NCBI RefSeq assembly: GCF_021028975.2
Contig: NC_059427.1
Coordinates: forward strand, 136,090,001-136,154,000
Length of the DNA stretch: 64,000 nucleotides
DNA from: Sphaerodactylus townsendi
Lineage: Eukaryota
Direction of reading: 5' to 3'
Shown: positions 36,534 through 61,902 of the stretch, one piece after another
Layout of the letters: every line of letters begins with the position of its first letter
Position numbering within the stretch: position 1 is the stretch's first letter
Notes under the pieces: model-generated
Told to the model about the DNA's origin: nothing
The model's database searches: none
What the model saw: only the letters and a program-made list of their open reading frames with translations
Made by a program: the position numbers and the translations under genes

Positions 36534-37425
36534 GCCAAATGTAAAGTGATGCACATAGGGGCAAAAAATCCAAACTTCACATACACGCTACAGGGGTTAG
36601 TGCTATCAGTCACAGACCAGGAAAGGGATTTAGGCGTCTTAGTTGATAGTTCCATGGGAATGTCAACTCAATGCATGGCAGCTGTGAAAAAGGCAAACTC
36701 TATGCTGGGGATCATTAGAAAAGGAATTGATAATAAAACTGCAAAGATTGTCATGCCCTTATATAAAGCAGTGGTGCGACCGCACTTGGAGTACTGTGTC
36801 CAGTTCTGGTCGCCGCATCTCAAAAGGATATTGAGGAGATAGAAAAAGTGCAGAGAAGGGCAACAAGGATGATTGAGGGACTGGAGCACCTTCCTATGAG
36901 GAGAGGCTGCAGCGTTTGGGACTCTTTAGTTTGGAGAGGAGGCTGGCTGGGGGGATATGATTGAAGTCTACAAAATTATGCATGGGGTAGAAAATGTTGA
37001 CAGAGAGAAATTTTTCTCTCTTTCTCACAATACTAGAACCAGGGGGCATTCATTGAAAATGCTGGGGGGAAGAATTAGGACTAATAAAAGGAAACATTTC
37101 TTCATGCAACGTGTGATTGGTGTTTGGAATATGCTGCCACAGGAGGTGGTGATGGCCACTAACCTGGATAGCTTTAAAAGGGGCTTGGACAGATTTATGG
37201 AGGAGAAGTCAATTTATGGCTACCAATCTTGATCCTCCTTGATCTCAGATTGCAAATGCCTTAACAGACCAGGTGATCGGGAGCAACAGCCTCAGAAGGC
37301 CATTGCGTTCACATCCTACATGTGAGCTCCTAAAGGCACCTGGTGGGCCACTGCGAGTAGCAGAGAGCTGGACTAGATGGACTTTGGTCTGATCCAGCTG
37401 GCTTGTTCTTATGTTCTTATGTTCT
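36534..37425 (+). mobile_element. 5'-truncated CR1 LINE, young
   Basis: ORF2 C-terminus (ERDLGVLVD, LYKAVVRPHLEYCVQFWSP, RTRGHSLK, FKRGLDRFM), (TTCTTATG)n tail, TSD TATTGTA (36527-36533 and 37426-37432). Confidence 0.95.
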
Positions 37426-37574
37426 TATTGTACTTTGATTACATTACAAGAAGATGAAAGTCACTTAGAAGGGCAATAATGTTAGGAAATGTATTGTCGA
37501 AGGCTTTCACGGCCGGAATCACTGGGGTGCTATGTGGTTTCCGGGCTGTATGGCCGTGTTCTAGCAGCATTCTC

Positions 37575-46256: not shown

Positions 46257-46361
46257 TAGGTGTCAAACTCATGGCCCTCCAGATGTTATGGACTACAGTT
46301 CCCATCATGATGATGGGAACTATAGTCCATAACATCTGGAGGGCCACGAGTTTGACACCTG
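46257..46361. mobile_element. 105-bp near-perfect palindromic hAT MITE
   Basis: Arms aggtgtcaaactc...gttcccatca / tgatgggaac...gagtttgacacct; 8-bp TSD TGGTCGAA / TGGTTGAA. Confidence 0.9.
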
Positions 46362-49386: not shown

Positions 49387-51663
49387 TGAGGAACAGACCT
49401 TACAATGTGAGAGTCTTGATGGGGATCTTACACCTGTGCTTTATAGAGGTCTTTCCCCTTCAAAATCCATACAGACCAGACTTTAAAGAGAAAGTACACA
49501 ATTTTATTGAAGAACCAAAAATAGTAAAAATACACATGTGATTCCACAACACACACTCAGAGAGAGAGAGACAGAGTTTCAAGGAGCCTAGGATGTGAGA
49601 AAGTGGTGAAAGATAGATGAGAATAGAAGAGGGCAATGAGGGAAGGGCAGTATTTGCAGATCTAAAAGAGGTCCAAAGAAACCAATTCCAGTGCCAGCAC
49701 TGTTTGCTGGAAGATGACATTAGGCACAATGGAGCCTGTGGTTGGGAGGTCTAATTATAGGAGAAGTTATAATTAGTCTGGCAGTGATAAATCGGGTCAC
49801 TTTCCAGAAACAAATCAGAATTCTATTTCCAGGCAGGAACAGTGTTATGCGAAAAGAATTGATTGGGTTACAAACTGGGAGCACCCAGCTTCTGATCTGG
49901 ACTAAATTGATGATGAGACAGATTACTGAACAAAAGGTTATTTTAAAAGATGCAGTTCAGACAGAACAGGAACACAATGAGTTAACCAGAGCTCCACCTG
50001 ATTGGCCAACTGAGCTGCAGTTAGCCAGAAACACAGAGAGGGAGTGTGCTCACTTGAGAGGGGCAGATAGAGTCAGTCAAAAGAAAGTCACAGATCAAGT
50101 CAGTCAGAGATTGAATCTAGAGGCAGTGAGAGCCAGAGCCAGAGTGGGAACGGCATATGTGCCAGAGTTCTCAAAGGAATCTCAAAAACCAAGAGAAAAA
50201 GATCCTTATTTCACCAGAGGCTAGGTGGCCAGGTGTTGGTGAAAGACCAGAGGGAAACATATTTATGGGGGAAATCCTAAGGCCACATGAAAGGCTTGGT
50301 TATAGTCTCAGAGGAGACTGCGCCTAGATATGGAACCGGAGAGTTCCTGAGGGTGTGTTAATATAATTGGCAGAGTCAAGAGAGGGTTTAGAGAAACCCT
50401 AAAGCTTTCTCTGTCCCAGCCCAGTGTGAAACCCTGAGGAGTAAAGGGTGGGTGGTTTAGGATCTTGTTCAAGACCGTGTAGGAAGGTTTACTCTGAAAG
50501 AGATAACTGAGTGTATGAAGCTATATTTTAAACTGAAACAGCCTTTTATGTGAAACAACTAAAGAGAAGTACTAAGTTCTGAATGTAAGGCCCTTTCTGC
50601 ACGGGGCCAAAAACAGTGGCTCAGGGATGGAAAAACACCAGTCCCTGGGGAGCTGTTCGCACAGGCAGCACTGCTGCAACACAGCAGCGCCGTCCTGTGC
50701 GGCCCCGAGCAGCGTGAAGGCACTGCTTTCCACCTCCCTTCCCGAGGGAGGTTTTTGGAAAGCACCGCCTTCCCATCGGCGTGGTGCGAACAGCACCGTG
50801 CCGAAGACGCCGCTTTCCCGTCCCCCCCCCACTCACCTCATCCTCCAGCGTCAATCTGGAGGGCTGATGAGACCCACCCACGCTGCCCTCCGACCCCTGG
50901 AGGTCAGACGGCAGCATGGGCAGGTCCCTGCAGCCCTCCAGACCAACGCTGGAGAACAAGGTGAGGTCCCTGCAGCCCTCCAGACCAACGCTGGAGAACG
51001 AGGGGATGCAGAAGAGGTGGCTCTGTGCGGAGCTGCCTCTTCTGTGCCAGCCTCTGCGGGGGCCGCCCGCACGCTCCCGTGCGAACGGCCCCCTCCCCTC
51101 CACCAGCATAATTTCTGCCAGTGGAGAGGCACCCTTTCTGCTGTGTGGAAAGGGCCTAACATCTAAGTATTTTCTGCCTAAGAAAAAGAAAAGTGTAAAA
51201 ACTCTCTGTACTATAAAAGTGAGGAAAAAACCCTGTAAATAAATTATTTTTTGTTTTTCTGTTAAGAAGCCTCTCAGGGATCAATTTTCCCTCAAAAAGG
51301 TGGCAGTGTACATTTTCCTGACAGGATTTTGCCTGAAGAGCTTTTGTGTGCATGTGAGTGGGGTGTACCTGGGCTATCAGCAGATAGCAGCTGTGCCCTT
51401 AGCCCTTCTTCCTGTTGGGCCTCTGAGTGAGTGTGTGTGTGGTAGATGATATTGGGACCAGGGCATTCTAAGTCAGAATGAGCTTGGAAGCCTAAACAAA
51501 GAAACTTCAGAAGGTTGATGGTTCTTTTATAATTGGACAGGTGGTTAACATTAAATTAACACTTGGGAAGGAGAGTTCAGGATGAATTGGTTGGAATCAG
51601 GTGTGAGGCATTTGCATGTTCTTTGTGAGGCTGAGGACAGGTGTCCATACTCAAGGCTGTACA
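49387..51663. mobile_element. Composite LTR-like region (probably nested solo LTRs) containing a MITE
   Basis: Minus-strand polyA signal at about 49504 with similarity to 20300-20460; plus-strand AATAAA at 51238 followed by TGACA at 51323; no clean TSDs. Confidence 0.35.
50589..51156. mobile_element. PIF/Harbinger-type MITE (568 bp), CpG-rich
   Basis: TIR ggccctttctgcac / gtgtggaaagggcc, perfect TAA TSD, internal 42-bp tandem duplication at about 50922-50999. Confidence 0.85.
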
Positions 51664-51664
51664 G

Positions 51665-52710
51665 TTGTAAATTTAAAATAGAACAAAGGTTAGATACTTG
51701 GGGATTCTATTAGAAAATAATAGCAAGGGATTAATACACAACAACTATGACAGAATTTGGAATGAGATTAATAAAGACCTAAATAAATGGAAGAGTTTGA
51801 ATCTTTCCCTGTTAGGCAGGATTGGAATAATTAAAATGTCAGTCCTGCCAAGACTAATGTACCTTTTCCAGAATATTCCACTTATAACATCTGGGAAGAC
51901 ATTTAATGAGTGGAGAACAGAAATTACTAAATTTATTTGGGATGGTGAAAAAATTAAATATTTTAAATATAAAAATATGATAGGTATTAAAACAAATGGG
52001 GGATTACCCTTACCTGACATCCAGTTATATCATGATGCAGCAGCATTATCATGGATTACAGAATGGATTTTATTAAATAACAATGCATTATTGAAACTGA
52101 AAGGTTTCAATGTAAAAGCAGGCTGGCATAACCACTTATGGTCTAATTCTCCTGACAAAAAAGGAGACAGAATATTTAAAGACCACTACATGAGAAATAC
52201 ATTGTTAAAAATCTTGGTAAAATATAAGAATATATTTTACTTTAAACCCCGCCCCCCCCGGATTTCAAGGATGGAAGAGCTACAAATTAAAAATAGAAAT
52301 AAAAATGAGGCTTGGCCTTGATACAAAGAAATTTCACAGTGGGTAGGAGAGGTTCCAACATTAAAAACTAGAGCGTTAATAAAATTTGAAGAACAGGAAT
52401 GCCATTGGTTTACATATTTTCAGATCAGAAATAATTTCCTAAAAGACCAGGAAGCATGAGGAGTTGCCAAAAAAATATAATGTATTAGATATAGCTTTGT
52501 TGCACGAAGGATCAAAAATAATTAGTAAAATATACAAAATTTTGCTACAACAATAAATTGAAACAAGTAGTTAAAACGGTATGATTAAATGGGCAGAAAA
52601 TATTAACATAACAATATCTCTAGATCAATGGACAAGTTATTGGGAAAGTATTCACAAATGTTCTCCTAATATAGATATTTGGGGAAATAACTTAAAGATG
52701 TTCTACAGAA
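51665..52710 (+). mobile_element. L1-clade LINE ORF2 C-terminal fragment
   Basis: ORF 51698-52321 gives RYLGI...WKSLNLSLLGRIGIIKMSVLPRLMYLFQ...FIW...GGLPLPDIQLYH, typical of the L1 thumb/wrist region. Confidence 0.9.
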
Positions 52711-54425
52711 CTCAACTCAGCAGCTCTTTCGTCCTTGTCCTGATTGGCTGTTGTGTTGTGTTGGGGCAGGAATTTTTTAAAAAACTTTTTTTGCACAGTT
52801 ATGTCACCACACACATGCGTAGATAGAACGGTAGCTGTTTTTGCGCTAAGCTATGTTTATGCGTGGCTTTGGCATTCTTTACCCATGCAGCTGCACTGGC
52901 ACAAAAGTCTAATTTTAGTTTACAGTTGGCACAGAAATCACGTTCCACGCAGCCACGTTTCAATGTAGCTGCCACCAGTGCAAAACAAAAAAAGGGGCTG
53001 CGCATGAATTACGCACAGCCCACTGTGCTCTGATTGGCTGGAAGGCTCCACATTACTCCCAATGGTGGGAAAACAAACCTGCATTCAACCCCTGAACCTC
53101 TCCACCTCCCCAGTGATCTGACTTTGATGCACCTTTTTTAAAAAGGTGCACTTCCATGAAGGTTCTTAAAAATCACGTGATAAGGAGGAGAGGGAGCACC
53201 AGAATCTGGATGAATCCATGTTCAGCGGTTAAGCAGTGGGGAGTTCTTCCTGAAACCTTGATATTTTGCATGAGTATCACGCGATTAATTGACCGTGGGG
53301 ATTCGACCGTAATTTTATAATCCTCACCATGTCTGTTCATGGTTGCACAGAACTAACTAACCCTGTCATCATTCAATACCTTCTCATGGAAAACAATTAA
53401 TTTGATATGGAAATTACCTTCATTCCCTTATTTGATTGTCATCTCAGGTAAGGTGTTTATAGATAGAAAAATTAAATCAGGACTAAACACAACACTTTGT
53501 TTTCAGTGGCCATAAAGGGTTTGTGGAGGAAATGATTTCATTTTACACAAAGAGTGCAGGAACAGATCTTGTACATATATTAATTTATGTGTGCCTCTTC
53601 TATAAATGTACCTCAAAACCAAAGTAATTTGGCTACCCAAGAGAGAAGACTATGCAACTACAAGGAAAACAGACCTTGTTATATAGGGATATTGCTGAAA
53701 GTTGTGATTAGCTGATCTGGAATATGAACTTGTTCAGATTGTAATATTCAGAAGCAGAGCCACCAAGAGGAAGGGGTAGTGGGAACAAAATTTGTGCCCT
53801 GGGTCCTTTGAATTCCCAGCTTTCATTTTTTAAAAAGGTAAAAGGTAGCCCTTTCCATTGCAGAATTATACATTTCCCATTATATCTGTAGTAGAAGGAG
53901 ATGGCAACTTACTTTTTTAAAAAGTAAAAGCAGGAATCCATAGAATCTGGCACATACAAGTGTTATAACATATCAATCTATTATTAGCTAAGTGCCATTT
54001 AAAAAAACATATATTGAAAGTCTTTGGTGGAAGGGGAAGAAAATAGCTGCTGTGGGAAACCATCTCAGGGAAAATGGCTGTTGTGTGAGTGGAGAAAATC
54101 AAAATGGCTGAGAGGTTAAGCTGACACAAAATGGTGAGCACAGTTATGAGAAAAAGGCGAGAACTGCAAATAGTCTTTGGATGCACCTAAAATGCTCTTT
54201 TATCAAAGTACAAGCTTAATAGTGCCCAGAGTAAAGGCATTAACATAAGTAGCACTTAAAATAGCTTTTTAAACACTATCAGAGAATTGGGATGGGAGGA
54301 GGGAACAGAACTGGGCAGGCACTAGGACTGCAGGGGAGCATTCAATTGCACAGCAGGTTCAGGAAGTGGCTATGGATTAATTCAACACTTAGGTTCTTTC
54401 TTTCTGTGAGACAAAGTATAGCTAG

Positions 54426-55048
54426 TGATATGTACACATATATAGTTCACAGTGTTTTAAGCCATATATATATATAGTAGCCTGCACAAAAGGGTGGAGC
54501 ATGTTATATAAAATCATCTTAGCTAACATCCCTGCAGAGGCTTGGAATTGAAGTTGCTGAAAATCAGGTAAACACAAGGAATGTGAAGGGGTGCCAAGGA
54601 GCAGCCTGACACTAGCTCTAAGTTGAAAGGAACGGGGCCTCTCAGTAGAGATTAGCTAGCAAGACGTGCACCCAATAAATCAAACTTAGCAGAAACCTTG
54701 ATTGATATAGAAACTGTGCACATGAGGTGTTCTTAGACTCAAGTAAAATTAAAAATATGAGATGGAAAGGTGTGGTAAGAGGTGGGATAAGATGACCAGG
54801 TCTGTACGTTCACTTGACTCAACCCAATGAGCAAGAAACGGGGAGGTATGTTTTTGTAACTATAAATTATGTTACACAAGCAACAGCCCCTTTGAACCTC
54901 CTCCCTGTTGCTAACAGAGGAGAGTTCCCTCTTCTGCGCAGAATTGGAACAATAAACTCTGAACACTGAAGAAGTTTATGGATGGTTATTTCTGAGTAAC
55001 CGAACAGAGTCTTAGCTCTGAACACAGGACCTAGCCCTGTGCCTAACA
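54426..55048 (+). repeat. ERV 5' LTR
   Basis: TG...CA ends, CCAAT at about 54823, TATAAA at 54861, AATAAA at 54951. Confidence 0.95.
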
Positions 55049-55050
55049 AT

Positions 55051-55068
55051 TGGTGGCCCGTACGGGGA
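55051..55068 (+). promoter_or_regulatory. Primer binding site, tRNA-Ile
   Basis: TGGTGGCCCGTACGGGGA is complementary to the 3' 18 nt of vertebrate tRNA-Ile(AAU) and lies 2 nt after the LTR. Confidence 0.9.
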
Positions 55069-55575
55069 ATTAATCTTGATCTAGCTCTGGTTTGGACAGT
55101 CTCTCAGGGCTCTCAGCCTTTAGGGCGTCAGGGTCACTGTTCATTCTGCAGCTCAGCATCGGGATTGAAGACTCGACAACTTTTAGAGCCAATTCTTCAG
55201 TGCTCAGACTTTTAGCAAAGATTCCTGAAATAGGGAATCCTGAAGGTAACAGTTAGAGCAAGGATTTCTGGAACACGAATATCCTGGAGTAGGTCCTGAA
55301 ATAGGGACAAGATGGTGAGTAGTGGTTATTGAAATACACTACACAGGAGAGGGAGGAGGAAGGACGCTTTCTCAGAGGTCAAAGACAGGGGCATGGCCCC
55401 TCAGACCCCCCTTAAGGCACAAGTGCAATGGTAGAATAAAGGGAGGAAAGGGTACGCTCTTTCAGAGGTTTTAGATGGGAGGTATAGTGATAAGGATACC
55501 CCCGGAGACCCCCCTGGCAATAAGGTTGAGGTCAGTGGGACCAAGATGACCTATTGTTTTAAAGGTATGTAATTG

Positions 55576-55678
55576 CCGTGTTTCCCCAGGTATAAGACAG
55601 TATCTTATGTTGATTTTTGCTCCCAAAGATGTGCTGTGTCTTGTTTTTCAGGGATGTCTTATATTGGGGGAAACAAGG
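55576..55678. mobile_element. Tc2/pogo-like (Tc1/mariner superfamily) MITE inside the ERV
   Basis: TIRs ccgtgtttcccc...taagaca / tgtctta...ggggaaacaagg; TA on the right, TG on the left. Confidence 0.65.
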
Positions 55679-56859
55679 TAAAAGTTTAAATGGCTAGCCA
55701 AGAGTGTAAAAAGATTATTGTATTTAAAGTCTTCTTTTGTGAGTTTAGCTAATTTTTAGAGCTCTTTTATTTTAAGAAAATATTTCTGATAAAAAGAATT
55801 AAAACAGGCTGTTTAAAGTAAAAAGAAAAAAAATGCTTTTAGAGCAGTATTTTTTATCACAGGTCAGGGAGGAAAATCCTGCTCAGTGGTTCGATCATGT
55901 TTGTGTGTGAGAGAGAGAGGCTTTTTAGCCGTACGCGGGAACTGAAAGAAGGGGGAGCTGCAGCTATGTTAAAGTTTCTGTTTAGTTACAGAGACTAGAG
56001 GCATGGAGAAGCAAGAGTTTTTAGTTTAAGGAATGTGGAAAATGAGAAAGAGGCAGAGGGAAGAAGAAGAGGGGGTTGCCACCATTGGAATAAACAACCC
56101 TCTGCCTCGAGAAGGAATCAGAGTATAAAATGTAAAAAGGAGGGGAAAGCAGAATGATGTTTAAAGATGAATTTATGATGGCAGTTAAATAAGAAAGTAA
56201 ATTGAAAATAGGATGGATATTTATAAAACATAAATTGTAAAAAGGATAACATGAGGCTGGTCCTCAGTCCTTATAAACAGGGGCAAATGGGAGAGGAGAG
56301 CTAAAATGTTGCAACATTAATTAGGAGAAAGCAAATGCGTTTTTGAGGTAATAAAAGCATGTTTTGGAGTAAGTTAAAGTAACAGGATAAAGAAAAGGGG
56401 GCTGAGTTAGTTAGTTTCCTTAATGAAATGACATGTTTTAGTAATGCAACAAAATATGAATAGCATAGTAGTTTTAAGAAATTTTAAGATATTTGAACCT
56501 AGTGTTTTTAAAGATAATGTAGCCTTGTACCCAGTTTCCAAAGACCCCAAAAAATTTTAAACAGAGGTTTAGTATCAAGAACCAGTTTTTAATAGCTGCA
56601 GGAGAAACCAGGGGAAACTGGGGCACATGTTTGCACTTTTTAAAATTTAAAATTTCAGAATTGAAGTGAAGAGTAGAGCCTCCAGAAACGAACGCAGTAT
56701 TTTCTGACAGGCTGTCTGCTTCCAAATTGTTCAGGGAGAAAAAGCTGTATTGAATTACGTAAGATGAGATGGCAGGCTGCATGCCTGAAGAAAAAGGAGA
56801 GATAAAGAATTAACCCTTTTCTAACTGTGAGATGCCAGCTCCACTTAGTAAAGGGTGTG

Positions 56860-57266
56860 AAAGTCAATGAAGATAATTGAGGAACTGGAGCACTTTCCTT
56901 ATGAGGACAGGCTGCAGTGTTTAAGATTCTTTAGTTTAGAGAAGAGACGTCTGGGATATGATTGAAGTTTATAAAATTATGCGTGAAAAAAAATGTTGAC
57001 AGAGAAATTTTTCTCTCTTTCTCATGGCATTAAAAGCAGGGGCATACATTGAAAATGTTGGGGATACAAGGGGAGAGATTAGATTAATAAAAAAGAAACA
57101 TTTCTTTACGCGAATGTGTGATTAGTGTTTAAAATATGCTGCTACAGGAGGTGGGGATGGCCACCAGCCTGGATAGCTTTAAAAGGGTTTGGACAGATTT
57201 ATGGAGGAGAAGCCGAATCCATGGCTACCAATCTTGATCCTCCTTGATTTGGGATGGCAAACTGCC
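56860..57266 (+). mobile_element. CR1 3' fragment inside the ERV
   Basis: Aligns with 36853-37260; lacks the terminal UTR and tail and abuts pol sequence. Confidence 0.9.
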
Positions 57267-57269
57267 AGG

Positions 57270-57875
57270 AAATTTATGACATGCTCATTTGCTTAAATAT
57301 GAGGCTGTGTTACTGGAACAAACAGATTTAGTGTTAAACACAGACTCAAGAGTAAACCCAGCATCTTTCCTGCAAATAGATGGGAGCATAGAAGTAGGAA
57401 TTGACCATGACTGTTTAGGAATTGACACACTATCAAACTAAAACAAGATGGGACTTGGAGGAAGATCCCATTAAAGGAGAGCAGATTTGTTCATCAATGG
57501 CTCTTCTCGAATGGTAGAGGGGAAATGATGTAATGGATATACAGTTCTTCATGGAACTGAAATTCTAGAGCAAGGTTCCTTGCCCCTTGGTTGGTCAGCC
57601 CCAGACATGTGAATTATATGCACTGTGGAGAGCATTGCAGTTAGAGGAAGAAATGGGAATGTAAATATTTATACAAATTTAAAATATTTATATGGGGTTA
57701 TTTAGACCTTTGGGAAATTATGAAAGGAAAGAGGTCTTTGAATACAAGGGGCAAATCTTTGGCACACGAATAGTTAGTGGGAAAAGTTCTAGAAGCTCTA
57801 GAACTCGCAGGCCAAGTATCAGTGCTACATGTCAAAGGGTATCAAACAGGTAGCTCTGAAATTTTGGCTGACCAA
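57270..57875 (+). pseudogene. pol: ERV pol remnant: connection domain plus RNase H (copy 1)
   Basis: LLKYEAVLLEQTDLVL...NPASFL; LFINGSSRMVEGK*CNGY; WSA/QTCELYAL; IYTNLKY; TFGKL*KERG; HVKG. Confidence 0.85.
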
Positions 57876-57924
57876 GTAGAAAGAAAAAAAAAATATTTGG
57901 GGCACTTAATAGCACAAAGGAGGG

Positions 57925-58135
57925 TGACTGTTTTTAAATGGGTTTTCTAGGGTAATAGAGGGAAAAGGCACAATGGGTTTGTAGTAGTGGATGGGGAAAC
58001 AAGTAAAATTTTAGAGGCAAAGAGACTGCCTAATACCTGGTCAGCCCAAATTTGTGAGCTTTATACATTGAATTAGGCATTACAAAATTTAAAATACCAA
58101 GATGGAATGCTTTTGGAGTGTCATACTTTTTGGGG
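57925..58135 (+). pseudogene. pol: ERV RNase H remnant (copy 2, different lineage)
   Basis: LFLNGFSRVIEG/KRHNGFVVVDGETSKILEAKRLPNTWSAQICELYTLN*ALQNL. Confidence 0.8.
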
Positions 58136-58779
58136 GAAAAAAAAGGATTCTAGGATAGAAGGGGAAAGGGAAGTTGCTCTAGAATCAGGGGTGTGGTTTA
58201 TGAGAGATGGTCACAAGTGGATTGGTAGAGCAGTAGCCTATTTAGTGCTGCTTGGGGTAAGCCACTAAAAGTATTAGGGTGTTGGAAAACAACAATAAAT
58301 GTTTTTGATAAAGTTTTATAATGAGAGATAGGGTAAATAATTGTATAAGAATTATAAAATTTGTAAGGGGAAAAAGGGTTTGTGTTTTTGTAAAATGTAT
58401 TAAATATATATAGTTTTTTAAAAGTAATGTAGGGGGGAAAGGTCAAGGGGTATGTAATTATGAAAGATATGGAAAGAAAAGAGGGGAAAAGTAGAGATTG
58501 GAACATGAGTAAATATAGTCAAGCGAATTCTGGCCTGATAAAGAAAAGTCTGTTTTAAATTAAAAATCCTTTTTAGTTTATTTAGAGTTCAAACATAACC
58601 ATGGGATTATATTTTTTGTTTTTTAAGTGATGTGCAGCATTTTTGTATGGAATGTCATTTTATCACATGAGGGGGTAATTTTTGAAATCAATGATTGTTA
58701 TTAGGAAATGTGCTGCTGGTCTGGCCTTTGTTTCTGTTTTGTTTTACGGCAGGCGGCTTTATTACGAGATCCCGACACG

Positions 58780-58960
58780 AGTCCAGATCATAAGTTCTTG
58801 CCTAGAGACTGAGTCCTGTTGAAGCACTGAAAAAAAAAAAGAGTCCTTAGGAGGCAAAAGTAGGACGGGCCTTATTAAGTGCTGTTGGACGCATAGAGGT
58901 ATCAGTAAGGACAGAACGCGGATGGGCTTATTATATACGGGACAAAGCTTCATTGCCTCT
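58780..58960 (+). pseudogene. pol: ERV integrase C-terminal (GPY/F) remnant
   Basis: HKFLPRD*VLLKH*K...TGPY*VLL...VRTERGWAYY. Confidence 0.75.
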
Positions 58961-59840
58961 TGAGCCTGAACTGCTGTTATGCTTCCAGACCAGCTGTTTA
59001 AACTGACTTTGAGAAGAAAGCCAGACAACAAAACTGAACTTAAATTTTAATATTTAACTTCAGGACATTGACAGTTGAAAACTATAAGAAGACAATCCTG
59101 TTGGATACTAGAGAAGAAATTACAGAACTTTGCTTTTTAATTTAAAACCCCCTTTGACTTCCTTATGGACTTGATTTGAAAAATGAAGGACTTTTGTGTA
59201 AAAATGGGAGAGATAGGAGTTTTCAGATAGTGGGGAGGGTGCACTGGTGTTATCATTATTATGGAAAGGAGAGAAAAGAAGCTTCTAGCTTCTAAGACTA
59301 ATAGATTCCTGGGTACGGTGGTAGAGGTATCAAGACTGAGGCCTACAGTACTCTAATTGGTAAAATGGGTGGCAATATTGTAATCAATTCTTTTGATATA
59401 AGTGGTGTCATATAGTACATGCATTATATTAGTGGTGTGGGGGTTACCTTTTTCTAGTGTAGACAGAATGTTATAATAATAAGTTTTATAAAGTAGTAAG
59501 GTTAATGTTATTAGTGGCAAATGTTCTAAAATGTTGAGTATGCTCTAGAGAGCCTTTTTCTACTTGAGAGATGGGTTGGGTGGCTTACTAATTGAATTTC
59601 TTATTTGTGGTTAAAAAAAAATGTCTTTATGTTTATTTTAATGGTGACATAGTAATGGGTTATTATATGTATTTGTATGCAATGTTTATTACCTTTAAGC
59701 AGTTGTGCACATGCTACACGTCACAAGGTTTAATGGCTTTAGTTACAGAAAAGCACACTTATTTTAGAAAAGCACCAAGTTAACGCAGAGAAAAATAATA
59801 CAATTATGTAAATGCAAGTTTTAGTGGCTTAAAACAGTAT

Positions 59841-59860
59841 GAAAAAGGAAAAGGATGGAT
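59841..59860 (+). promoter_or_regulatory. Polypurine tract
   Basis: gaaaaaggaaaaggatggat immediately precedes the 3' LTR. Confidence 0.85.
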
Positions 59861-60487
59861 TGATATGTACACATATATAGTTCACAGTGTTTTAAGCCAT
59901 ATATATATATATATAGTAGCCTGCACAAAAGGGTGGAGCATGTTATATAAAATCATCTTAGCTAACATCCCTGCAGAGGCTTGGAATTGAAGTTGCTGAA
60001 AATCAGGTAAACACAAGGAATGTGAAGGGGTGCCAAGGAGCAGCCTGACACTAGCTCTAAGTTGAAAGGAACGGGGCCTCTCAGTAGAGATTAGCTAGCA
60101 AGACGTTCACAAAATAGATAAGAGTTAGCAGAAGACTTGATTGCTATAGAAACTGTGTACATGAGGTGTTTTTAGACTCAAGTAACATTAAAAATATGAG
60201 ATGGAAAGGTGTGGTAAGAGGTGGGATAAGATGACCAGGTCTGTACGTTCACTTGACTCAACCCAATGAGCAAGAAACGGGGAGGTATGTTTTTGTAACT
60301 ATAAATTATGTTACACAAGCAACAGCCCCTTTGAACCTCCTCCCTGTTGCTAACAGAGGAGAGTTCCCTCTTCTGCGCAGAATTGAAACAATAAACTCTG
60401 AACACTGAAGAAGCTTATGGATGGTTATTTGTGAGTAACCGGACAGAGTTTTAGCTCTGAACACAGGGCTCTGCCCTGTGCCTAACA
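59861..60487 (+). repeat. ERV 3' LTR
   Basis: Direct repeat of 54426-55048. Confidence 0.95.
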
Positions 60488-60901
60488 CTAGGATAGATAG
60501 AGATGCAGGATGCATGTCCTGCCATCATGGTACCAAGATGGAGAAAAGAGAAATGTGGAAGGAAGTTTCAGACAGAAGGAAGATTCCCGGAGAGTAGCAA
60601 TCTACACATCAAAGGTATAGAATCAGAGCAGCAAAAAGGAAGTGAAGACAACTGCCTTTTGACAAGACTACCTTGAAAGAAGAATGGAAGAGAAAGCAAG
60701 GATTCAACTATTTTTCTATAAGAGTTCAATTCAACGAGCTGGAGAAGGTTCAACTAACACATCATTTATCCTTCAGAAAGCTTATGGAACTAGTTTAGAT
60801 GTCCCTCTTCTGTGGCCTAAATCACTGGTTTTGTGACATTTCCTGCCCTGCCAAAACCAAACTATATTATTTAGAACTGTCCTTAGACAGTAACTGTCTA
60901 A

Positions 60902-61030
60902 GGCTGATTCCGTATGGGCCAAAAACAGCAGTGTGAAAACGTTGTGAAAATGGTGTAAAAGGATTTAAAACAGTGTAAAAGGGTTTATACTGTTTTCACA
61001 CTGCTGTTTTTGGCCCATGCGGAATCAGCC
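60902..61030. mobile_element. 129-bp palindromic Harbinger-type MITE
   Basis: About 39-bp TIR ggctgattccgtatgggccaaaaacagcagtgtgaaaac. Confidence 0.8.
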
Positions 61031-61902
61031 TCTGTAACTGTCCTTAGACATTCATTTCAGGCTGGTGTTAGGGCTTTTTCCATTGGAATCAGGCTGTGCA
61101 GAGATAATCACTTTTCAGAATCTTTTGGATGGTACTGAAAAACTGGTTTTGCTTGTGGCACACAAGGATATTTTTACTGCCCCTTTCTGGATCTCTGATG
61201 AAACAGTTTCGCAGGGTTTTGCAAGGCCTGATGCTTCACTTCTAAGAAGCCAAAAACTAATAACCAGAAAGCATGGCAAACACAGCTGCACACAGACCAG
61301 CTTCAATTTTGGTGGGGCTGTCTAGGGAAAATGACTTCTGGACAATTCTTGCAGTGAGCAAGATACACAAACATAGAATGCCAGGAGTAATTTTGGAACT
61401 GGATTGAATTCTTTTCTTAAATACATGATTAAAGGATGCAATATATTAATGCACTCTGGTTCGGCATCTTCAAAAGAAAAAAGTATGGCTTTAGAAGTGG
61501 AATTAACTAGACAGATTTATTCATCTAGCTGAGTCATCATTCATCATTCAATTGACTTCAGTGAGGTAAGAAATAATTGTTGTCTTCAAGTATTAGGAAA
61601 GTTTAGTGAGAACAGGTTTTTGCCCTACCAGAGGAAATTTCCTTGCATTTCCTCTACCATATTTCTATAAAGCTAATAATGGTGGAAACCATTCCTATTC
61701 CCAGTAGGATGGAAATTCTGCCACTTGCTCCAGATGAAAAGTAATATACCGGTAGATTTATAAAATTGGAGTACATTTTCTATGTGATAAGGCTAAAAAC
61801 TATGGGGATTTTAAAGCTCGCAGGGCCTTCCCTATTCCCTCTCCACTTCCCCTGATCTACCTACCCAGGCCCAGTGGAATGTGACAAGCCTTCTATCCAT
61901 TC

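Follow-up and report, generated by a model that had tools for sequence, protein, structure and literature searches.

The window analysed here, a 64,000-nucleotide stretch of the Sphaerodactylus townsendi genome, contains an endogenous retrovirus (ERV) that carries a piece of a CR1 element, and the locus raises the question of what process left this piece with an excess of both G>A and C>T changes relative to free CR1 copies. Our preferred reading, to which we give a probability of about 0.6, is that a host cytidine deaminase, most likely APOBEC1-like, edited both the minus-strand cDNA and a plus-sense molecule, probably the genomic RNA, sub-lethally and over many rounds.

Structure of the element and its family

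The features of the element and its CR1 control are as follows:
54426-60487: whole LTR element, 6.06 kb, inside which the CR1 finding sits
54422..54425 (+): target-site duplication CTAG, with a second copy at 60488-60491
54426..55048 (+): 5′ LTR (TG...CA), 96% identical to the 3′ LTR (22 mismatches in 627 columns)
55051..55068 (+): PBS-like 18-mer just after the 5′ LTR, a putative tRNA-Ile match
55081..56850 (+): leader, similar to that of the related provirus L095, and degraded interior, with a gag region weakly similar to L095
56859..57266 (+): captured CR1 piece in sense orientation, the polarised mutation recorder
57258..57862 (+): RNase H remnant with 91% identity to L095, interrupted by stops; a young, lightly edited layer
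57880..58168 (+): second, more degraded RNase H-like remnant (score 132.5, against 64 for the best of 20 shuffles)
58290..58620 (+): C-poor tract 1 (4.8% C), its 3′ part in weak alignment with the L095 integrase region
58663..59247 (+): integrase C-terminal remnant, aligned to L095
59260..59860 (+): env-region remnants, including C-poor tract 2, aligned to L095
59841..59858 (+): polypurine tract
59861..60487 (+): 3′ LTR
36540..37430 (+): free young CR1 copy used as a control; 29 more copies were fetched at 97-98% identity

The longest stop-free frame of the ERV on the plus strand spans 71 aa, no RT domain was detected in the degraded interior (55081..56850), and no tRNA genes were found in the window. 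Provirus L095 has open frames with Gag_p30, RVP, RVT_1, RNase_H, rve, MLVIN_C and TLV_coat domains; the window ERV matches it in blocks at 67-91% DNA identity, and the pro/RT region of L095 gave no alignment to the window above shuffles. A search of the gecko's own genome returned 46 matches to the ERV. The family comprises 34 further loci (L061-L094), nearly all with two LTRs, and hence at least 35 copies with the window element. The CR1 piece, present at least in part in 34 of the 34 other family loci fetched, is missing the 3′ end and tail of CR1, and its junction with the RNase H block spans a few shared letters; it was presumably captured by template switching. An LTR pair, a 4-bp target-site duplication, a PBS and a PPT, as expected of gamma-like ERVs, are all found in the family, which is without coding capacity yet occurs as multiple insertions of common structure. 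Because its relative L095 has open frames with the domains listed above, we classify the family, on its sequence, as a non-autonomous derivative of a gamma-like (Class I) ERV.

Several further observations concern the structure of the family and its surroundings. The two RNase H remnants (57258-57862 and 57880-58168) lie in tandem and are of unequal age, one being 91% identical to L095 and the other much older, which suggests that recombination with a helper ERV took place more than once; most other family copies are missing about 300 nt of the younger remnant. Loci L088 and L093 are variants in which the CR1 piece is shorter and additional pol segments, 92-95% identical to L095, are present; L088 also contains an inverted block. 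At L085 and L099, two elements stand in tandem with the middle LTR common to both. The LTR pairs of L061-L094, and the window at 54707-54790, show mismatches in blocks, for which we propose either mosaic LTRs or mixing during assembly, and the U5-PBS junction differs among copies. The family may be shared across related species, since it was found too in contigs of runs X5 and X6, which are labelled as two other organisms. Elsewhere in the window, short elements with long inverted repeats (46258-46360, 60901-61031 and 50832-51006) are MITE-like by appearance, and an A-rich stretch at about 51650-52720 may represent a LINE ORF2 remnant, which it resembles.

Polarised substitutions in the CR1 piece and the rest of the interior

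A preliminary description of this locus had quoted eight motif changes between the ERV-borne piece and the free CR1 copy, and all eight are present in the pairwise alignment. We assigned polarity within the piece using 77 free CR1 copies in three sets (30, 32 and 15, many of the last 15 being partial). Polarity was upheld in all three sets, although a few differences proved to be CR1-subfamily variants, such as the second C>T in gtctac>gtttat, where T is carried by 27/32 and 6/6 other free copies. Sites variable among free copies, subfamily variants, and the first and last ten columns were dropped from the counts. An allele was counted if it occurred in at least 3 of the 30 ERV-borne CR1 copies, including one of the 8 clean copies. 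Singletons were excluded because many ERV copies are indel-rich (13-160 short gaps relative to the nearest clean copy), probably as a result of assembly error. Long terminal branches were considered as hypermutants and rejected, as those copies have many short indels and unbiased substitutions.

Across the 30 ERV-borne copies, G>A occurred at 31 of 107 sites against A>G at 11 of 108 (P=5e-4), and C>T at 22 of 58 against T>C at 6 of 100 (P=1e-6), alongside 7 transversions; CpG sites contributed 2 G>A and 2 C>T changes. The window copy alone, at strictly polarised free-CR1 sites, gave 15/102 G>A, 15/58 C>T, 7/107 A>G and 4/101 T>C with 9 transversions, and just 2 changes fell at CpG, in agreement with the earlier statement that the changes lie mostly outside CpG. 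In the rest of the interior, where 33 of 36 copies were aligned (L088, L093 and L095 were left out), common minor alleles comprised 86/513 G>A, 42/237 C>T, 22/739 A>G and 16/611 T>C, with 21 transversions; outside the CR1 piece, polarity is that of minor-allele frequency or of a single comparator. Once polarised, A>G and T>C do not approach the forward classes but fall 3-7 fold below them per base. C>T is at least as frequent per base as G>A, and the classical strand bias, with G>A far above C>T, is absent.

Among the reverse transitions, A>G is more frequent than T>C (7-12 versus 1-4 per copy) in 8/8 clean copies at 56859-57266, mostly at shared sites, for which we propose a difference in the donor subfamily or a faint A-to-I trace. 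ADAR was rejected as an editor, given that A>G is only weakly above T>C (11/108 versus 6/100) and its context is not ADAR-like. The exact CR1 donor subfamily was not found: one donor motif had zero matches in the genome, and a second occurred at 206 places, from which 15 fetched copies share only some of the ERV-borne letters.

Segments of different age and C-poor tracts

Comparison with L095 extends the pattern beyond the CR1 piece. The RNase H block (91% identity) shows C>T at 11/95 and T>C at 4/145; the integrase remnant shows C>T at 28/98, T>C at 5/117, G>A at 28/124 and A>G at 19/141; and the env-region remnants show C>T at 19/39 and 20/43, with T>C at 7/78 and 7/85. The edit load relative to L095 therein rises with segment age. 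Two L095-compared blocks have a modest G>A excess (15/214, versus 7/296 A>G), and the balance of the two classes shifts by layer, C>T being ahead in the old remnants and L095-like blocks and G>A among young copies.

The rise of the C>T load with segment age accounts for the two C-poor tracts, which had been described as nearly C-free. That at 58290-58620 holds 16 C in 331 nt (4.8%), below all of the 1074 overlapping background windows (median 18.2%, minimum 7.3% C), whereas that at 59380-59700, with 26 C in 321 (8.1%), is C-poor and not C-free. In 197 codons aligned to a related open-frame copy, we counted 13 G>A, 12 C>T, 4 A>G and 4 T>C changes, and all four stop-making changes were C>T (3) or G>A (1).

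Changes arose before integration

The free CR1 background has a different spectrum from the ERV-borne piece. Private changes in 59 free copies amount, outside CpG and per 1000, to 5.0 G>A, 5.0 C>T, 3.4 A>G and 3.5 T>C, against about 40 per 1000 at CpG, with 145 transversions in total; this background is strand-symmetric and CpG-led, and it lacks the YC bias described below (OR 0.71 and 1.08). Three young ERV copies (L061, L073 and L068) have LTR pairs with 2, 2 and 6 mismatches, yet differ at 191-256 interior sites. Near-identical LTRs combined with so many interior differences indicate that most of the differences predate insertion; the changes arose during replication, before integration. 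Polarised differences among these three copies in the CR1 piece comprise 13 G>A, 4 C>T, 3 A>G and 1 T>C, with 2 transversions.

The transition excess is also seen in short-read contigs over 57860-59840, where four runs or sets from three studies, one of which may be the source of the assembly, gave 129, 126, 89 and 114 transition places versus 19, 18, 18 and 28 transversion places. In two other ERV groups, whose pol frames are open, the transitions are balanced (32/29/29/20 and 22/14/13/12) and a YC bias is lacking, although these groups are weak controls because they are under selection.

Slow accumulation along the element

The preliminary description spoke of clustered hypermutation, of which the G>A and C>T excess stands but the clustering was overstated. 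The longest same-type run in the 28 pairs of the 8 clean copies is 6, clusters of at least 10 consecutive G>A are absent, and neighbours are in excess at P<0.05 in 6 of the 28 pairs, which are non-independent. The absence of long runs argues for slow accumulation and not for burst hypermutation. From 5′ to 3′, the G>A fractions per bin are 0.08, 0.18, 0.22, 0.26, 0.12 and 0.19, and are thus non-monotonic toward the PPT. The comparison of LTRs with the interior, which bears on RNA versus DNA editing, involves LTR alignments that are mosaic and rich in transversions.

Edits in the CR1 piece span the whole frequency range: some are near-fixed (11 G>A and 14 C>T sites, each carried by 80% or more of the copies, on both chromosome strands) and others clade-restricted, so that they must have accumulated over many rounds. 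The earlier proposal of repeated replication cycles is thus supported, both by alleles at all frequencies and by young copies that differ widely inside. Its companion proposal, that the edits record antiretroviral restriction, is not supported, because the family kept spreading while it was edited.

The two strands carry different motifs

We examined the context of the target C on each strand, outside CpG, in two non-overlapping sets (the CR1 piece and the other interior). By the base at −1, the edited fractions are 9/129 (A), 49/192 (C), 2/91 (G) and 54/198 (T) on the minus strand, and 19/86 (A), 6/53 (C), 12/82 (G) and 23/62 (T) on the plus strand, with a strand by −1 base interaction of P=1.4e-4. 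YC is favoured on the minus strand (OR 6.55, P=6e-10; plus strand OR 1.47), and WCW on the plus strand (OR 2.96, P=6e-4; minus strand OR 0.94), the WCW test being partly post hoc, as the CR1 contexts were known before the WCW literature and four motifs were tried per strand. With all four sets, minus-strand YC has an OR of 4.37, plus-strand WCW an OR of 3.2 (P=3e-6) and minus-strand WCW an OR of 0.94. Reading the plus-strand context from free CR1 or L095 gives an OR of 4.88 for WCW (P=0.002), and TC alone fits that strand about as well as WCW. In the fourth block, TC is the leading plus-strand context (10/20), and with this block included plus-strand YC becomes significant too (OR 1.96), so that the strand contrast is one of CC versus AC and is not absolute. 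The minus-strand YC bias was missing from the two L095-compared blocks (OR 1.28, P=0.8, 20 events).

Within the minus-strand motif, CC equals TC and neither a T at −2 nor a preceding T run gives a boost, so the TTC preference on cDNA that characterises rabbit A1 is not seen. The AID motif WRC is favoured on neither strand (plus 15/99 versus 27/153, minus 11/149 versus 81/420), and C>T shows no preference for predicted unpaired C or for AU-rich surroundings.

These contexts bear directly on the strongest alternative, that RT misincorporation (T opposite G, through low dCTP:dTTP or slippage) in both strand syntheses, followed by neutral accumulation, produced the changes with no deaminase. Such a single cause would cover both directions, the dispersed pattern and the lack of a clear gradient, and G>A (27/17%) and C>T (14/23%) are reported as still large classes in HIV-1/2 without hypermutants (PMC4496919). 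Slippage would moreover favour TC on either strand, and TC is indeed high in both cases (54/198 and 23/62), but a preceding T run makes no difference on the minus strand. Mirror contexts would be expected from one enzyme, whereas the observed ones differ (P=1.4e-4), with CC at 49/192 on the minus strand versus 6/53 on the plus strand and AC at 9/129 versus 19/86, and minus-strand RC sites (10/197) stay near the 3% level of A>G and T>C. The error context could still differ between RNA and DNA templates; on balance, we regard RT error as an unlikely origin of the whole spectrum.

Candidate host deaminases

The gecko genome contains five genes of the AID/APOBEC family. One (L178) is APOBEC1-like, has HxE and PCxxC motifs, and includes an exon identical to P0001, a Sphaerodactylus townsendi protein annotated as APOBEC-1-like. 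From Pfam ranking, we provisionally take L175 to be APOBEC2-like, L176/180/181 to be AID-like and L177 to be APOBEC4-like. An unnamed AID/APOBEC-family deaminase exon with HxE and PCxxC motifs at L179:1372-1869 had no homologues at E<=0.001, and is a second candidate editor judging by these motifs.

Proposed mechanism and remaining alternatives

Under editing by a deaminase of both strands, each round of replication would bring low-level deamination of C at YC in minus-strand cDNA, read as G>A, and deamination of C at TC/WCW in a plus-sense molecule, read as C>T. The non-autonomous family would be copied in trans by a helper ERV, and C depletion would be greater in older segments than in younger ones. 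Freed from the need to maintain a reading frame, the family would keep edits that are purged in coding ERVs, and would thus act as a neutral recorder. A deaminase probably acted on the cDNA, and somewhat less probably also on a plus-sense molecule. Interior plus-strand DNA is rarely single-stranded, so RNA is the likelier second target, although we put RNA at somewhat under even odds. As to the enzyme, we lean slightly towards APOBEC1 specifically. The preliminary description had named a squamate deaminase acting on cDNA and on RNA or the plus strand; the strand motifs fit cDNA and a plus-sense molecule, and RT bias may account for part of the signal.

Slightly less likely than RT error is a mixed origin, in which a DNA-only deaminase edited the cDNA (G>A) and C>T had another source: action of that same enzyme on plus-strand DNA that had been displaced, a further deaminase, or C>U arising spontaneously in the packaged RNA. 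It accords with the description of reptile A1 as a DNA editor (bioRxiv 10.64898/2025.12.03.692250). C>T is raised in every context (CC 6/53 and GC 12/82, versus 3-6% for T>C), the C>T:G>A balance varies between layers and the host has five AID/APOBEC-family genes, points that speak in its favour. Spontaneous deamination, however, does not explain TC at 10/20, plus-strand DNA of the interior is normally not single-stranded, and the WRC motif of AID is favoured on neither strand.

Host-genome decay (CpG methylation or GC-to-AT bias), a wrong CR1 reference or assembly error is very improbable and largely refuted. In favour of such an origin, many copies have the indel-rich look that errors in a long-read consensus would produce, a few of the CR1 differences go back to subfamily variation, and the exact donor was not found. 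Against it, 11 G>A and 14 C>T sites recur on both chromosome strands in 80% or more of the copies, and the host background shows symmetry, CpG dominance and no context preference; the young LTR pairs are too recent for host mutation to have acted, and short-read contigs show the same transition excess.

Returning to editing by a host deaminase, we conclude that the G>A half of the spectrum is probably APOBEC-type cDNA editing at a sub-lethal rate, and that the C>T half points to still unproven RNA editing by a reptile deaminase. Whichever mechanism is right, the CR1 piece and its abundant free twins yield, for a reptile retrovirus, a polarised mutation spectrum in vivo of unusual clarity.

Comparison with known systems

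Editing of LTR elements by G>A is established in mammals and birds (PMC4866542; PMC2041998), and G>A sites are reported in anole and alligator LTRs in a study that argues RNA editing to be mammal-specific (bioRxiv 10.64898/2025.12.03.692250); further prior work is found in PMC7760323 and PMC3576619. The gecko family resembles these cases in its plus-strand G>A excess before integration, its GA/GG context and the stops made. The published cases are described as bursts in individual copies, each with at least 10 clustered G>A, in which C>T is some tenfold less common and serves as a negative control; the gecko changes are instead dispersed and have been passed on over many rounds, with C>T matching G>A in per-base frequency. 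In one such screen (PMC4866542), clusters of at least 10 G>A define editing and C>T is the control. Slow editing of two strands is invisible to cluster-based screens, because these need long G>A runs and treat C>T as noise. Opossum ERVs are reported to have a GY context (bioRxiv 10.1101/2025.05.21.655229), unlike the GR of the gecko family.

In anole L1, G>A editing has been described with lizard A1 as a candidate, an account in which the LTR, CR1 and L2 elements of the lizard gave no signal and C>T served as a control (PMC3880073); the gecko family is alike in being an edited squamate retroelement with the same candidate enzyme. Our literature search, which covered mostly titles and the starts of abstracts, listed neither a study of ERV editing in geckos nor one of plus-strand C>T in ERVs of reptiles. 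Lizard LTRs have already been reported to undergo G>A editing, and the new part is the plus-strand C>T signal, which existing screens set aside as a control.

Lizard A1 reportedly leaves apoB RNA unedited (PMC5399452; bioRxiv 10.64898/2025.12.03.692250), which counts against RNA editing, and the current view, as put in the same sources, limits the APOBEC1 of reptiles and birds to DNA and treats RNA editing as an exaptation of mammals. The different motifs on the two strands of the gecko ERV make this DNA-only view directly testable with one cloned enzyme. Tentatively, and at less than even odds, we suggest that a reptile APOBEC1-type enzyme edited retroviral genomic RNA and cDNA in the gecko germ line; if so, APOBEC1 RNA editing as an antiviral activity would predate mammals, the discarded C>T class would be a deaminase signal in squamates, and non-coding ERV passengers such as the CR1 piece would serve as clocks counting replication rounds under editing.

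The C>U excess of coronaviruses (PMC7831814) is alike in being plus-sense, favoured after U or A and disfavoured after C; it differs in concerning an RNA virus without a cDNA step in mammals, and the attribution to APOBEC is inferential in that account as well. Rabbit APOBEC1 acting on HIV-1 is described as targeting TTC on cDNA and WCW on virion RNA (PMC2588513). As with rabbit and rat A1 in that study, the gecko family combines G>A (cDNA) with C>T (virion RNA in the HIV-1 case) and a preference for W-flanked C on the plus-sense strand. The rabbit and rat enzymes were overexpressed in cell culture and had a TTC cDNA motif, whereas the gecko family offers a germ-line record with a candidate enzyme and a YC motif in which CC equals TC.
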